A stretch of DNA of 64,000 nucleotides from Candidatus Saccharicenans sp. (GTDB taxonomy: Bacteria; Acidobacteriota; Aminicenantia; Aminicenantales; Saccharicenantaceae): the NCBI GenBank assembly GCA_035416665.1, contig DAOLNQ010000003.1:7475-71474 (forward strand), written 5' to 3'. Positions 26,254-30,172 of the stretch are shown piece after piece. The position numbers were made by a program, and so were the translations under genes. Position 1 is the first letter of the stretch, and each line of letters starts with the position of its first letter. The notes beneath the pieces were generated by a model that saw only the letters and a program-made list of their open reading frames with translations, was not told where the DNA came from and did no database searches.

Positions 26254-26586
26254 AAGTCAGTAAAGAATAAACGCCCGGCGAGAGAAAAAAAAGTAAATTG
26301 CCTGAAAGCCTATTTGTTTGGTTCCTACCTCTGGCCAAGGTCAGAGCAAGACTTGGCCTTTGCCTGTATAAGCCACTGAAGATATAGGTCAAATTATAAA
26401 CCATTCATTAAGTTAAAAAATACTTGACAAAATGTGTGTCTTTGCTCTTATTTTAAGAGTAGAAGCAAAATGAAAAAGACAAGGGGTCAGCAGGAGTATG
26501 CCTTTGGCTAAAGGCGAATTCTATATAGAATAAGGTTAAAAATGGAAAAATTTAAATTTAATTATAGTGATTAAGGAGGCAAAGAA

Positions 26587-27735
26587 GTGCGTAAAAGATT
26601 TTCTTTTGTCTCAGGAAAAAGAGAGATGAGAAAGAGGTTAATAAGTGGGTGGATCCTGGTTATATTTATACTGAGTTCTGCGCATGGCCTGGAAATAACC
26701 TATGAGGGGAAAGTTCAGCTTGTTCAGAAAGAAGGCTTTTTTATTGGATCTCCCAGAGGTTTGGTGGTGACCGAAAAGGGCTTTATTATCATCTGTGATA
26801 GCCGGGCTTCGGATTTTAAGATCTTTAATCAGGAAGGCAAGGCACTCAGTGTTTTTGGCCGGAAAGGCTATGGGCCAGATGAATTTGCCGACCCCTGGCT
26901 TCACGATTATAAAAATGGGAAATTGCTCATTTCAGATACCAGCACCAAGAAATTGTATATTTATAGTGTTGATAAAGACTTAAAATTTCAGCAGACTAAG
27001 CAGACAATTGTAACCTCAGTTCTGGACGCAAAATTGATGGATGAAAAAGAAAAGATATTAATTGCCAGGTTGCCTATCACAGATAAAAATGCTGATAAAC
27101 CTTACGTCCTTTTTGCTATAGATATAAATGACGATGACCGTGACTACCTTCTGCCCTATGAACTTCAGCTGGGAGAAAATGTAAAACCAGTTGACTTTAA
27201 AAAAATCAACAGCAAAGGAAATCCCTGGGATATTCCGGACCTGATGATCTTACCATTCTGGATTTATTGTGACTACTATGGGAATGACGTTTATTTCATC
27301 TGGACAGCTAACCTGGATATCATCAAAATAGACCTGACCACCAAAGCCCACACCAGGTTTTCGCAGAAAACTGAAAAATATATAAAGCCAAAGGTCTCCT
27401 CTGAATATAAAAAAGCCTATATTGAACATAATTCAAAAGAATACGGAGATTGGAATACAAGGATGTCCTGGGTATGTAAGGTCTTTGCGGATTCAGATAT
27501 GGTGGGGATCGTTTATACCAATTTTGACAACAAAACTTCGAGGTGGAACTCTTTTCTCCAGATATATGATCACAATGGGGCCTTTCTCAAAGAAGCCCCT
27601 TTAGAAAATTTCAGTAGTACGTATGAGCGGCCTGATATCTATTATGACCGGGATAAAAAAACTCTTTACTGCCTCTCTGAAGAGTCGATAGGCACTGAGG
27701 GTGTTTATACGGTCTATAAGTACAGGCTGAGATGA
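26587..27735 (+). CDS. secreted NHL-repeat six-bladed beta-propeller protein, paralogue 1 (chimeric N-terminus)
   Basis: 382 aa. A GTG start lies 7 nt after an AAGGAGG RBS inherited from the duplicated leader. The first about 13 codons are homologous to the start of the small-peptide gene in copy 2, which indicates a deletion fusion. An NHL-like motif is present (GRKGYGPDEFADPW). The protein is a paralogue of 28572..29678. Confidence 0.6.
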   Translation: MRKRFSFVSGKREMRKRLISGWILVIFILSSAHGLEITYEGKVQLVQKEGFFIGSPRGLVVTEKGFIIICDSRASDFKIFNQEGKALSVFGRKGYGPDEFADPWLHDYKNGKLLISDTSTKKLYIYSVDKDLKFQQTKQTIVTSVLDAKLMDEKEKILIARLPITDKNADKPYVLFAIDINDDDRDYLLPYELQLGENVKPVDFKKINSKGNPWDIPDLMILPFWIYCDYYGNDVYFIWTANLDIIKIDLTTKAHTRFSQKTEKYIKPKVSSEYKKAYIEHNSKEYGDWNTRMSWVCKVFADSDMVGIVYTNFDNKTSRWNSFLQIYDHNGAFLKEAPLENFSSTYERPDIYYDRDKKTLYCLSEESIGTEGVYTVYKYRLR

Positions 27736-27800
27736 AGAAAAACCTGATAATATTGGTGTTGATTTGCTTCCATTAGTAGTAATGAGCTTTTGGCCAAAGT
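27732..27800 (+). pseudogene. truncated remnant of the thioredoxin-like gene (paralogue of 29675..30172)
   Basis: The ATG at 27732 overlaps the propeller stop as ATGA, exactly as in copy 2. It encodes MKKNLIILVLICFH and then a stop (compare MKKNLIILFLICSLIVA in the intact copy). Nucleotide similarity continues for about 30 nt beyond the stop. Confidence 0.45.
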
Positions 27801-28130
27801 TGAAAAGAGAATTCTCGGGGAGTTTATTAGAGGGAAGGTAATGGAGTTAATGAACTGGTTATTCTACTATGGTCGAAGTTCCATGGCGCCGCGCTTGAGG
27901 TCTGGAATGAGGTGGATATCTACTTGTTGGCCGATGGAGCTCGGGGAGAGGGATTTTGGTGGTTATAGAATTCTACATGCCGATCAGCATTGACAATTCT
28001 TTTTTGTCTAAAACAAAAAGGCATCCCAGTACTAAAATGCTTGCGTATCTGTTCTATGCATTTCTCCTATAACAGGAATGCATCATTAACTGATCACTTT
28101 TCAAGCGTAAATAAAAAGTTAAAAAAATAC

Positions 28131-28165
28131 TTGACAAAGATGTTTTTTTTTTTTTAACCTATAAA
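28131..28165 (+). promoter_or_regulatory. putative promoter of peptide operon containing T13 homopolymer in spacer
   Basis: TTGACA (28131-28136) lies within the block agttaaaaaaatacttgacaaa, which is also found at about 26418-26439 upstream of copy 1. The spacer aagatg plus T13 (28143-28155) is followed by a taacct/tataaa -10 candidate. A conserved leader of about 130 nt then runs to the ATG at 28292. Confidence 0.4.
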
Positions 28166-28291
28166 AAAAGGGAAATGAAAAAGACAAGCCGAGGCAGACG
28201 TGCGCTATTAGTTAAAAACGATTTTTTATGTATGGCAACGCTAAAAATGGGAAAATTTAAATTTAATTTTTATGATTAAGGAGGCAAAACA

Positions 28292-28513
28292 ATGCGCAAA
28301 AAAGTTTTTGTGGGGGTACTTATTCTTTTAATCACTATTTCGGCTCTTATTGCTGTCCCAAATTTCACTCCTAAAGCAAGGGCTTCAGCGCCGGAAGTTT
28401 ATGGGCAGTGGATTGGCGATGACACCTGTGGACCTGGTGGCTGGAGATGCTGGCAATATGAGTGTTACAACTGTTGGTGCCGTGATGTAGGCTCTGGTGA
28501 TTGCTGTAATTAA
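28292..28513 (+). CDS. small Sec-secreted Cys/Trp-rich peptide precursor (candidate bacteriocin-like or disulfide-rich peptide)
   Basis: 73 aa. A strong RBS is present (AAGGAGG, then 7 nt, then ATG). The Sec-type signal peptide is MRKKVFVGVLILLITISALIAVPNFTPKARASA, with an AxA cleavage site. The mature 40 residues are PEVYGQWIGDDTCGPGGWRCWQYECYNCWCRDVGSGDCCN, containing 7 Cys and 5 Trp. Confidence 0.6.
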   Translation: MRKKVFVGVLILLITISALIAVPNFTPKARASAPEVYGQWIGDDTCGPGGWRCWQYECYNCWCRDVGSGDCCN

Positions 28514-28524
28514 ATCTATTGAAT

Positions 28525-28560
28525 GAAGGCTGAAGGAACTGAAAGATTCCTTCAGCCTTC
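28525..28560 (+). terminator. stem-loop between peptide gene and propeller gene (partial terminator / attenuator)
   Basis: A perfect 13-bp inverted repeat, gaaggctgaagga and tccttcagccttc, is separated by a 10-nt loop. It lies 12 nt after the peptide stop codon. No U-tract follows it. The propeller ATG is 12 nt downstream. Confidence 0.5.
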
Positions 28561-28571
28561 CGAGGAATGAG

Positions 28572-29678
28572 ATGGGAAAAAGAGTAATAGGTGTATGCAT
28601 TTTTATTATATTTATAGCAAGTTCTCTATCTGCCCTGGAAATAACTTATGAAGGGAAAGTTCAGCTTGTTCAGAAAGAAGGCTTTTTTATTGGATTTCCT
28701 CGTGGTTTTGTCGTTACCGAAGACGATTTTATTGTCGTCTGTGATATCCGGGCTTCGGATTTTAAGATCTTTAATCAGGAAGGCAAGGCACTCAGTGTTT
28801 TTGGCCGGAAAGGCTATGGGCCAGATGAATTTGCCGACCCCTGGCTTCACGATTATAAAAATGGGAAATTGCTCATTTCAGATACCAGCACCAAGAAATT
28901 GTATATTTATAGTGTTGATAAAGACTTAAAATTTCAGCAGACTAAGCAGACAATTGTAACTTCAGTTATGGACGCAAAATTGATAGATGAAAAGGATATG
29001 GTTTTAATAGCCAGAATGCCTATTAAAGATAGTCCTTCTCCTACTGCTTACGTCCTCTTTGTTCTGGATATTACGAGAGGCAGCCGTGATCATCTTGTAC
29101 CCTTTGAGCTTCAACTGGGGGAAAATGAAAAGCCGGTGGATTTTGATAAACTTAAAAAAACGAATCCCTCGGATTTTCCCGATTGGATGATCTTACCCCC
29201 GTGGAAGTACTGTGACTACTCTGGAGATAACGTTTATTTCGTCTGGGCGGCTAACCTGGATATCATCAAAATTGACCTGACTACCAAAGCCCACACCAGA
29301 TTTTCGCGCAAGACCGAAAAATATATCCAGCCTAAAGTCTCTCGTGAATTTAAAAAAGCTTATAATGAACATAATTCAAAAGAATATAGGGGTTGGGTTC
29401 AAAAGATGTCCTGGGTATGTAAGGTCTTTGCGGATTCAGACATGGTGGGGATCGTTTATACCAATTTTGACAACAAAACTTCAAGGTGGAACTCTTTTCT
29501 CCAGATATATGATCACAATGGAACCTTTCTCAAAGAAGCCCCTTTAGAAAATTTCAGTAGTACTTCTGAGCGGCCTAATCTCTATTATGATAGGAACAAA
29601 AAAATACTTTACTGCCTCTCTGAAGAGTCGATAGGCACTGAAGGTGTTTATACGGTCTATAAGTACAGGCTGAGATGA
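28572..29678 (+). CDS. secreted NHL-repeat six-bladed beta-propeller protein, paralogue 2
   Basis: 368 aa. The signal peptide is MGKRVIGVCIFIIFIASSLSA. An NHL-like repeat signature is present (GRKGYGPDEFADPW), and the hydrophobic/Gly periodicity fits propeller blades. There is a 213-bp tract identical to paralogue 1. Confidence 0.7.
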   Translation: MGKRVIGVCIFIIFIASSLSALEITYEGKVQLVQKEGFFIGFPRGFVVTEDDFIVVCDIRASDFKIFNQEGKALSVFGRKGYGPDEFADPWLHDYKNGKLLISDTSTKKLYIYSVDKDLKFQQTKQTIVTSVMDAKLIDEKDMVLIARMPIKDSPSPTAYVLFVLDITRGSRDHLVPFELQLGENEKPVDFDKLKKTNPSDFPDWMILPPWKYCDYSGDNVYFVWAANLDIIKIDLTTKAHTRFSRKTEKYIQPKVSREFKKAYNEHNSKEYRGWVQKMSWVCKVFADSDMVGIVYTNFDNKTSRWNSFLQIYDHNGTFLKEAPLENFSSTSERPNLYYDRNKKILYCLSEESIGTEGVYTVYKYRLR

Positions 29679-30172
29679 AGAAAAATCTGATAATACTGTT
29701 CCTCATTTGCTCGCTAATAGTAGCTCTAAGCTTTTGTTATAAATACCATAAGCTTAGCTCATACCCAGAATTCCCATTAGAACCTGAGTCGGCAAAAAAT
29801 AATGAGGTATTACCATTCTATTTATTTTTATATTTTCATTCTCATGATTGCCCTCAGTGTTTAAGGGTCATAAATGTTCTCAACAATTTGCCACCGGAGT
29901 ATATTGTCAGGGGCATAATTCCTGACGAGGAGATAGAGGACAGCGAGAAGATTAAGGAGATAACTGGTGCTAGATTCGAATTTGAACCAGTTAGTAAATA
30001 TAAGAAGTTTAGGCCGCCGATAAGCCCGTGTTTAGTTGGCGTTTCGAAAGAAAAAGTAATATTGTTTGTCTTACCGTCAGTTCCTGACCAGGAAAAATAT
30101 TTACAGGAGTTTTTAGGGTCGTTCTACTATAGCCGTGTATTTTTTGGGTATGAAGAGCATATGTTAAATTAG
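29675..30172 (+). CDS. membrane-anchored thioredoxin-like CxxC protein
   Basis: 165 aa. The ATG overlaps the propeller stop as ATGA, which indicates translational coupling. An N-terminal TM anchor is present. The motif FHSHDCPQCLRV (Cys59-x2-Cys62) sits in a thioredoxin-fold context. Confidence 0.6.
   Translation: MKKNLIILFLICSLIVALSFCYKYHKLSSYPEFPLEPESAKNNEVLPFYLFLYFHSHDCPQCLRVINVLNNLPPEYIVRGIIPDEEIEDSEKIKEITGARFEFEPVSKYKKFRPPISPCLVGVSKEKVILFVLPSVPDQEKYLQEFLGSFYYSRVFFGYEEHMLN

Follow-up and report, generated by a model that had tools for sequence, protein, structure and literature searches.

A lineage-specific gene trio of Cys-rich peptide, NHL propeller, and thioredoxin-like protein in Aminicenantes

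Introduction

Bacteroidetocins are class IIf bacteriocins of Bacteroidetes, and dedicated thiol oxidoreductases are needed for the toxin activity of the Cys-containing members where the general Dsb machinery is absent (PMC6671954). In the NHLRC2-type pair of a thioredoxin-like (Trx-like) domain and an NHL domain, conserved residues lie in the cleft between the domains, and a CC(I/V)NC motif is present (PMC6107167). A redox role has been proposed for this Trx-NHL pairing (bioRxiv 10.1101/2024.11.01.621559). The present study deals with a 64,000-nucleotide stretch of DNA from Candidatus Saccharicenans sp. (assembly GCA_035416665.1, contig DAOLNQ010000003.1, positions 7,475 to 71,474 of the forward strand), hereafter called the window. 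It contains a trio of genes that encode a small exported Cys- and Trp-rich peptide, an NHL beta-propeller, and a membrane-anchored Trx-like protein, and these three genes are a conserved co-occurring module specific to Aminicenantes.

Other bacteriocin loci also include dedicated oxidoreductases, as in the case of bdbA/bdbB of sublancin and PedC of pediocin. The methylamine dehydrogenase cluster encodes the propeller MauB, the Cys/Trp-rich light subunit MauA, and the thioredoxin-like MauD, and the gamma subunit of quinohaemoprotein amine dehydrogenase is a similar small Cys/Trp subunit. The trio of the window is undescribed, and no described family matches it. A literature search found no paper on the trio, on DUF5128, on NVEALA, on a propeller combined with a Cys-rich peptide, or on a Saccharicenans peptide system. 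The window holds two cassettes, copy 1 and copy 2, which an original prediction, made from the sequence alone, had taken for a tandem duplication with one decayed copy and had likened to bacteriocin and toxin islands.

The three-gene module and its occurrence

Copy 2 (type B) is the intact trio, and its open reading frames (ORFs) are present as originally described. On the forward strand, a gene for a 73-amino-acid (aa) precursor peptide with 7 Cys (MRKKVFVGVLILLITISALIAVPNFTPKARASAPEVYGQWIGDDTCGPGGWRCWQYECYNCWCRDVGSGDCCN) lies at 28292..28513 and is followed by a stem-loop at 28525..28560 in the interval before the propeller gene. The gene at 28572..29678 (+) encodes a six-bladed NHL beta-propeller of 368 aa with an N-terminal signal peptide, and the gene at 29675..30172 (+) encodes the membrane-anchored thioredoxin-like protein of 165 aa with a CPQC motif. 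The start of the last gene overlaps the propeller stop as ATGA.

With either the peptide or the propeller as the starting point, the same peptide-propeller-Trx order, including the 4-nt ATGA overlap of the last two genes, was found in about ten distinct Aminicenantes metagenome loci (L001/L017, L002-7, L011, L012, L019, L023, L027, and L028/29). The co-occurrence on which the original prediction depended was thus borne out, down to 34% propeller and 43% Trx identity in L023, where the peptide is down to four Cys. The nearest relatives, L002-L007, are 75, 84, and 78% identical to the window in the peptide, propeller, and Trx-like protein, respectively, and the corresponding values for L001 and L017 are 56, 52, and 52%. 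L019 shares 71% of the propeller and 73% of the Trx-like protein. In L011 and L012, with propellers 46% and 49% identical to that of the window, the peptide gene was missed by the gene finder, and L027, L028, and L029 are trios with coupled propeller and Trx genes. An AraC-type regulator lies immediately upstream in L011, L012, and L028.

A distant branch (28% identity) shows other arrangements. In L026, a 72-aa peptide comes after the propeller. In L025 (5001-7887), a peptide-like N-terminus with a signal, the NF motif, and GVWVDGECMGDGNEC continues in frame into a second propeller. The fusion has 408 aa and lies between a stand-alone propeller gene and a CLDC Trx-like gene. It matched the peptide hidden Markov model at E = 1e-10, a value from a single comparison in which part of the score comes from the hydrophobic signal.

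Some neighbours of these loci were recorded separately. The gene after the L025 fusion (neighbours 8006-9400) encodes SIR2_2 and TIR_2 domains and is defence-island-like, and the orphan propeller of L014 adjoins a methyltransferase/ThaI restriction pair. L002 has a second pairing upstream of its trio (306-1908, minus strand), in which a 437-aa DUF5128-type propeller is followed by an unrelated 77-aa Cys-rich ORF (...GCSGRCGGCSCSG...CCGTCYH...CCVGGMGCH). An ISL3 transposase fragment lies in between, and likewise in L004 and L005. This second pairing hints that a propeller with a Cys-rich peptide is a recurrent theme in the lineage.

The peptide

The signal peptides of the peptide and the propeller and the cleavage site were judged by eye. 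The peptide N-terminus is a signal with a conserved ..NF..KAxA motif, composed of the n-region MRKK, a hydrophobic h-region, and an AxA c-region. It ends in KARA/SA, and by inspection cleavage probably takes place after KARA. The mature peptide has about 42 aa and is anionic and rich in Cys and Trp, with the consensus APEVEGxW(V/I)DDPxCGPGGWRCWxxxCxxCWCRDxxSGDCC. The predicted Sec-type signal stands by inspection, and the predicted secretion needs qualification. Aminicenantes are diderm, and a Sec substrate therefore ends in the periplasm.

Homologs of the peptide are P0020-22, P0029-31, and uncalled ORFs in L011, L012, L027, and L028. Between clades, synonymous sites are saturated (proportion of synonymous differences, pS, 0.76-0.95), against a proportion of nonsynonymous differences (pN) of only 0.13-0.26. 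This pattern upholds the predicted ORF as a real gene, which is under strong purifying selection. Six Cys positions are common to all main-clade peptides and the remaining ones vary; distant relatives have only 2-4 Cys. The invariant motifs CWCRD and GWRC place Trp beside Cys, and the Trp positions are Tyr or Phe in the type A peptides.

Sequence searches of Pfam, NCBIfam, PADLOC, and PDB gave no family match for the peptide. An exhaustive profile search of 1.84e9 representative proteins returned only five matches. Therefore, the family is very narrow, though gene finders under-call small ORFs. Among the five is P0032, a 1158-aa eukaryote-like mucin with eight repeats of D(P/T)SCAxGGLGCYxxxCRFC, which resemble the peptide core DDPxCGPGGWRCWxxxCxxC (E = 2.8e-5, summed). 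The Cys motif of P0032 is probably convergent. A pattern scan of GTDB genomes gave no confirmed match, and L017 was the sole addition from a metagenome pattern scan. Two further candidates were rejected. L018 is spurious and out of frame within a NuoI-like gene, and the upstream "72-aa peptide" of L032 is a scaffold-gap artefact of a propeller N-terminus.

The propeller and the thioredoxin-like protein

The propeller has a six-bladed NHL fold and an NHL signature, which agrees with the type originally assigned. Its family profile matches the NHL domains of Thin, TRIM2, TRIM71, and Brat in PDB (E = 8e-22 to 3e-14), while single-repeat Pfam NHL matches stay under the cut-off (15.5 and 12.7 bits vs 20). 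The only Pfam family touched by the propeller is DUF5128 (PF17170), and this match is borderline: with a gathering threshold of 22.9 bits, copy 1 scored 25.8, copy 2 scored 22.4, and L023 gave no match. Beyond this, NCBIfam gave only ScyF/NHL far below its cut-off, PADLOC gave nothing, and the PDB profile search gave generic NHL domains only. The family alignment has no invariant His or Cys for a metal or catalytic site, and its strongest motif is the NHL signature GRKGYGPDEF. The propeller has no transmembrane (TM) or output domain. PAL, an NHL-type lyase acting on peptides, is among its structural neighbours.

The third protein is a TM-anchored Trx-like protein, as had been proposed, with one N-terminal TM helix and, in a moderately confident model, a TlpA/ResA/DsbE-like fold. 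It carries two marks of extracytoplasmic thioredoxin-fold oxidoreductases, namely a CxxC (here CPxC) at the start of helix 1 and a cis-Pro loop, whose cis conformation was inferred. Across A2, C59-P-x-C62 and P118 do not vary, and both are also kept in L023, L027, and L028; CPEC, CPAC, CPTC, CPSC, and CLDC occur as variants besides CPQC. The closest folds are the reductases ResA, CcmG, and TlpA and the oxidases Mtb DsbE/F and SdbA, with Sco at lower Z. Sequence searches of NCBIfam, PADLOC, and PDB did not place the protein in a family. A third conserved Cys next to the cis-Pro was considered as a metal ligand and rejected, being V or M in L027 and L028.

Upstream regions and the hairpin

The copy 1 (type A) upstream region (26410..26586, +) aligns with those of copy 2, L002, L019, L020, and L022. 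It contains a TTGACA box (26424-26429), A-rich conserved blocks, and the Shine-Dalgarno (SD) sequence AAGGAGG (26573-26579). The blocks alignable between copies 1 and 2 are AAGTTAAAAAATACTTGACAAA (26410-26431), AAAATGAAAAAGACAAG (26467-26483), and AAAAATGGAAAAATTTAAATTTAATT..GATTAAGGAGG (about 26538-26579). The copy 2 (type B) region (28015..28291, +) has blocks in common with five other cassettes and is 93% identical to the region 5' of the L002-type cassette. It includes a TTGACA box (28131-28136), a T13 tract (28143-28155), A-rich blocks, and a Shine-Dalgarno sequence. The predicted conserved leader of about 150 nt holds in that the blocks align, but these are sequence blocks confined to the genus, without an Rfam match or a conserved RNA structure. 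Against Rfam (E <= 1), the leader gave a chance match only, and RNAalifold of six leaders gave -2.4 kcal/mol with no covariation and no conserved fold, and the reading as a riboswitch or other structured RNA was rejected. A leader peptide was also rejected: ORFs of 13, 34, and 5 codons start from the ATG within the conserved block, and L002 has ATA in its place, so that this start is regarded as unconserved. A canonical sigma-70 promoter was likewise not accepted. TTGACA is conserved, a consistent -10 was not found, and the scan count was no better than that of shuffles. Past TTGACA, a poly-T tract varies in length (T13 in copy 2, T11 in L002, and T9 in L019/L020/L022) and is interrupted in copy 1; either a spacer for slipped-strand phase variation or assembly noise in a homopolymer may account for this.

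The predicted stem-loop between the peptide and propeller genes was confirmed in copy 2 as a 14-bp stem (28525-28538 / 28547-28560) without a T-run after it. The hairpin has -24 kcal/mol and z = -5.3 relative to shuffles. Strong hairpins of unrelated sequence occupy the same position in L002, L011, L023, L027, and L028, and altogether 6 of 11 cassettes have a hairpin after the peptide gene (z <= -2.75). An A/T-rich inverted repeat (CTTTTCTTTTGGGGAAAAGAAAA) at 30239-30266, about 70 nt past the Trx-like stop, was uncalled by the terminator scan and may be the operon end.

Copy 1 and the history of the cassettes

Copy 1 keeps the upstream blocks, as predicted, and its alignment with copy 2 runs from 26410 onward. 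Its orphan NHL propeller (26587..27735, +) has 382 aa from GTG 26587 or 369 aa from ATG 26626. GTG 26587 (MRKRFSFV...) lines up with the peptide start codon of copy 2 and is its remnant. About 270 nt are absent after this codon, and the frame continues into the propeller ATG 26626, in agreement with the predicted deletion of the peptide gene and fusion of its first codons to the propeller. The Trx-like stub that had been described is also present in the sequence (27732..27776, +), with 14 codons from ATG 27732 to the TAG ending at 27776; it reads MKKNLIILVLICFH and then stops, and homology ends near 27797. The spacer between the cassettes (27798..28014, no strand) has no homolog in any fetched locus by blastn or tblastx, and the homology of copy 2 to the L002-type cassette starts at about 28015.

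At the protein level, identity between the two propellers is 80-81%. Their longest identical run is a tract of 213 nt (26802..27014, +) that matches copy 2 at 28748-28960. In codons 61-120, the synonymous and nonsynonymous rates (dS and dN) are both 0, while dS is 0.2-1.7 in the remainder of the gene. Therefore, the tract is attributed to gene conversion. L033 is a variant of the copy pair with further homogenisation. Relative to copy 2, the dN/dS of the copy 1 propeller is 0.31, and relative to its L020 ortholog it is 0.24; this propeller is under purifying selection rather than decaying.

Related genomes clarify the origin of copy 1. In L020 (UBA1061) and L022, the site lies between the same genes (transketolase and FAD oxidase / ACT, Zn peptidase, and M14) and holds a single cassette, whose peptide is of a distinct type A (NMPEVKGMYYDDPLCKAPGYRCYEC...). 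In its central segment (aa 140-235), the copy 1 propeller shares 83-91% identity with the L020/L022 type A propellers and 63% with copy 2, whereas its N-terminal part is 92% identical to copy 2 and 69-77% to L020 and L022. Gene conversion has thus made the N-terminal part more uniform with copy 2. The breakpoint of the Trx stub (..GAGCTTTTGGCCA) is common to copy 1 and L020; therefore, the deletion is older than the split of these genomes. From these alignments, copy 1 is orthologous to the single cassette at the same site in related genomes, and the window combines a type A remnant with a type B cassette in tandem, which are diverged types and not recent duplicates. Of the predicted tandem duplication with a decayed copy, the loss of the peptide and Trx genes from copy 1 remains, but the copies are diverged types and the dN/dS of the propeller speaks against decay.

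Loss pattern among the cassettes

L020 has lost Trx, and its peptide gene has changed from AGGAGG to AGCAGG in the SD, from ATG to ATA at the start, and from a conserved Cys to Arg, while the propeller is intact. In copy 1, the peptide gene is wholly deleted and only the propeller is intact. Orphan propellers without peptide or Trx in L008-10/L021 and L014/15 have a dN/dS of 0.17-0.23. In L022, a deletion fuses propeller residue 209 to Trx residue 43, and the Trx membrane anchor is gone. The L019 peptide gene (about 2350-2400) has a frameshift in the signal peptide beside the T-run, perhaps a homopolymer error. Because of this frameshift and the ATA start and weak SD of L020 (5700-5740), several cassettes in public metagenome-assembled genomes are likely to be non-functional. 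Across genomes, Trx loss accompanies peptide decay, and propellers persist as orphans. This pattern suggests that the peptide needs the Trx-like protein, whereas the propeller is of value by itself.

Genomic surroundings

The trio occupies a GC-poor island (0.37-0.40 at 26-31 kb vs about 0.47 in the flanks). By its protein matches, the DNA belongs to Candidatus Saccharicenans, phylum Aminicenantota. The island (26000-31000) sits among housekeeping genes whose synteny extends to L020 and L022, and its contents differ in every related genome examined. The flanks are the housekeeping genes named above, and 4 kb upstream, with housekeeping genes in between, is an ABC-2 pair. Several samples (JGI, ENA, and NCBI) gave at least 24 independent contigs with the two-cassette layout, and one of these contigs (L030) is 99.9% identical to the window; therefore, the layout does not stem from misassembly.

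Genes of the radical-SAM, LanB/C, YcaO, and C39-ABC types are absent for about 10 kb around the trio, which agrees with the original observation that no maturase of ribosomally synthesized and post-translationally modified peptides (RiPPs) and no peptidase-ABC exporter is nearby. The layout was rightly judged to be unlike known RiPP and class II bacteriocin loci, as such machinery is absent from the neighbourhood. The linked maturase that defines RiPP clusters (radical SAM/SPASM, LanB/C/M, or YcaO) is missing around the window trio, and radical SAM genes do occur near L011 and L014 but are not conserved together with the trio. Of the class II hallmarks, the double-glycine leader with a C39 exporter is absent, and a dedicated oxidoreductase beside a Cys-peptide gene is present. 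Relatives on phage or plasmid records were sought in IMG/VR and PLSDB and nothing was found, which leaves a link to toxin islands on mobile elements unsupported.

Two other genes of the window are unrelated to the trio. A multihaem cytochrome c with NapC/NirT- and MtrC-like Pfam matches is encoded at 37413-38783, and a 973-aa S9 prolyl-oligopeptidase-family protein at 16536-19457.

Proposed mechanism

Tentatively, the trio can be understood as a periplasmic peptide whose cysteines are handled by a dedicated oxidoreductase, with the propeller as a partner that binds it or gives protection, in a strain-variable, antagonism-like locus. How the genes are ordered and coupled, both folds, the purifying selection acting on peptide and propellers, and the sequence in which the parts decay were observed directly, and the remaining steps are inferred. 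Judging from sequence features, Sec would export the 73-aa precursor, and removal of the signal would free an acidic Cys/Trp-rich peptide of about 42 aa into the periplasm. The periplasm-facing CPxC protein would act on the peptide cysteines, most likely by forming or reshuffling disulfides, a step derived from fold, topology, and loss pattern, to which the oxidoreductases devoted to bacteroidetocins, sublancin, and pediocin offer a parallel. Through the ATGA overlap, the Trx-like protein would be made in a fixed ratio with the propeller, and the hairpin after the peptide gene may let the peptide message outlast or outnumber the downstream message. The soluble periplasmic NHL propeller would be the partner of the peptide, presumably via its type-specific central segment (aa 140-235). 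This segment tracks the peptide type, and in a mirror-tree comparison its correlation with peptide distance is the best (r = 0.62, vs 0.51 and 0.34) but too weak to count. The L025 fusion physically joins a peptide-like N-terminus to a propeller paralog. The role is the least certain step. The locus may serve strain-variable antagonism or protection, in which the peptide and oxidoreductase would be the production half and the propeller the binding or protective half, and orphan propellers would act like orphan immunity genes. A propeller half that is useful alone would explain copy 1 and the other orphan propellers. Strain variability and the low GC content of the island relative to its flanks favour an antagonism-like locus.

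Several observations weigh against this account. All mature peptides are anionic, with a net charge of -2 to -6 and a pI of 4.0-4.6. Most membrane-active bacteriocins are cationic, and in charge the peptides of the trio are unlike typical class II members. The Cys count is 2, 4, 6, 7, 8, or 10 and is odd in four intact peptides, and such a variable, odd number is unusual for a fixed disulfide knot. The closest folds of the Trx-like protein include both reductases and oxidases and so fit either redox direction, and its model is moderately confident, with a predicted local distance difference test (pLDDT) score of 68. No outer-membrane exporter is encoded, and a Sec peptide would therefore remain periplasmic. 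Immunity proteins for peptide bacteriocins are not known to include 40-kDa periplasmic propellers. The peptide::propeller fusion of L025 fits a toxin less well than a ligand or subunit. Antagonism is thus the weakest step because of the anionic peptides, the variable Cys, the lack of an exporter, and the L025 fusion.

Alternative explanations

The propeller and Trx genes are always translationally coupled, the Trx-like and NHL parts form a conserved functional pair elsewhere, with prokaryotic homologs (PMC6107167), and L025 shows peptide and propeller in one chain. These facts fit a split NHLRC2/SOQ1-like periplasmic redox machine, in which the Trx-like protein and propeller would act as one enzyme, the Cys-rich peptide would be a client, redox relay, or regulator, and the task would be envelope redox maintenance and not competition. 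This explanation is unlikely, since the defining CC(I/V)NC is absent and replaced by CPxC, propellers without Trx (copy 1, L020, L008, and L014) are unexpected for a two-part enzyme, and the strain-level decay of the locus speaks against housekeeping. Quite unlikely is a metallothionein-like periplasmic peptide that binds metal through thiolates, with the Trx-like protein keeping Cys reduced, in the way of TlpA, ResA, and CcmG for Cu or haem ligands, and the propeller as carrier or receptor. Motifs of the CxC, CC, and CxxC kinds, a Cys number that varies and is often odd, and the acidity would suit metal-thiolate clusters better than a fixed disulfide pattern; just six Cys positions are common to the main-clade peptides, and the nearest Trx folds include the Cys-ligand-preparing reductases ResA, CcmG, and TlpA (Sco at lower Z). 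However, no metal transporter or regulator is linked, two clades having an AraC-type regulator instead, the extra Cys beside the cis-Pro is not kept in L027 and L028, distant relatives are poor in Cys, and a strain-variable, decaying locus is odd for metal homeostasis. Improbable, too, is that the trio is a new class of periplasmically matured ribosomal peptide with the Trx-like/NHL pair as its whole maturation machine. The pair would then fold, cross-link (by disulfide or Cys-Trp), or load the peptide without a cytoplasmic maturase, leader peptidase, or ABC exporter.

A pheromone-like signal peptide with the propeller as its periplasmic receptor or binding protein is very unlikely. The peptide is small and exported, its gene is followed by a hairpin, an AraC-family regulator is directly 5' in L011, L012, and L028, and peptide and propeller types are matched, yet the propeller lacks a transmembrane or output domain, no kinase or regulator is linked in the window, and no route across the outer membrane is encoded. 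The peptide might also be the small Cys/Trp subunit of a propeller enzyme, possibly Cys-Trp cross-linked, or the propeller might be a periplasmic peptide-modifying enzyme. A likeness in composition to the mau and qhp clusters, the Trp beside Cys in CWCRD and GWRC, the L025 fusion, and the peptide lyase PAL among the structural neighbours are compatible with such an enzyme, which is nevertheless highly improbable: the blades number six and not seven, no MauG, QhpD, or flavoprotein maturation gene was found in the neighbourhood, orphan propellers are common, the Trp positions are Tyr/Phe in type A peptides, and the propeller alignment offers no invariant His/Cys for a metal or catalytic site. 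Lastly, copy 1 could be read as a functionless pseudogene remnant of a recent tandem duplication, given its deleted peptide gene and frameshifted Trx stub. This view is largely refuted and has very little probability. At least 24 contigs have an intact propeller ORF, its dN/dS is 0.24-0.31, a strong SD and the upstream blocks are retained, and the central segment is orthologous to the L020/L022 cassette and not derived from copy 2.

Significance and comparison with known systems

If the account of a peptide with its own oxidoreductase and propeller partner is true, the trio is a compact three-gene route to a multi-cysteine peptide in the envelope of an uncultured strict anaerobe. It would also give a peptide-binding or protection role to an NHL propeller family without an assigned function, and a simple bacterial model for Trx-like/NHL cooperation, a pairing that also occurs in SOQ1 of plants and in NHLRC2, a disease-linked human protein. 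Turnover at the level of strains (two cassette types, gene conversion, and orphan propellers) suggests a role in the competition of Saccharicenans strains in anaerobic digesters. If the pair were a maturation machine, the peptide would be the first defined natural client for a Trx-NHL pair of the sort fused in NHLRC2 and SOQ1, for which the biochemical substrates are still debated. If it is merely a folding helper for one periplasmic peptide, the trio is a modest addition to lineage-specific operons.

Among described propellers, the six-bladed ones of DUF5128/DUF4221 (PDB 4raa BF0058 and 3s9j BVU_1028) belong to Bacteroidetes and have a lipobox, whereas the trio propeller comes from another phylum and has an apparent signal peptidase I-type signal. 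Only the trio has this peptide family and this Trx partner, and the copy 2 match is borderline (22.4 vs 22.9 bits). The methylamine dehydrogenase cluster likewise combines a propeller, a small exported protein rich in disulfides and Trp, and a thioredoxin-like factor that serves assembly and is associated with the membrane. However, MauB has seven blades, MauA is about three times larger, MauG, MauE, and the other mau genes are lacking around the trio, and NCBIfam showed no similarity. The features of tryptophylquinone dehydrogenases (a seven-bladed subunit and MauG or QhpD/E/G) were not seen in the trio, which has six blades and in whose surroundings these genes were not found.

NHLRC2 and SOQ1 are structural neighbours of both trio proteins, at an identity of 9-14%. 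They also join a Trx-like domain with a six-bladed NHL propeller on the extracytoplasmic or lumenal side, with a single TM anchor in SOQ1. In contrast, they are one polypeptide with Trx first and CC(I/V)NC, while the trio has separate ORFs with the propeller first and CPxC. Moreover, the trio lacks their C-terminal domain, has a Cys-rich peptide gene, and its propellers also occur alone.

Of the described systems, the bacteroidetocin loci come closest to the trio in their logic. In both, a Cys peptide of about 42 aa stands beside a dedicated thioredoxin-family oxidoreductase, and the peptide ORFs are often missed by gene callers. Bacteroidetocin loci have a double-glycine leader, a C39-peptidase ABC exporter, and a 5-TM protein; the trio lacks these and has a Sec signal instead. 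The NHL propeller is found only in the trio, whose peptides are anionic with 6-10 Cys, and there is no sequence similarity. The trio is therefore an undescribed, lineage-restricted version of the theme of an exported Cys-rich peptide with a dedicated oxidoreductase, in which the propeller is an obligatory third partner.

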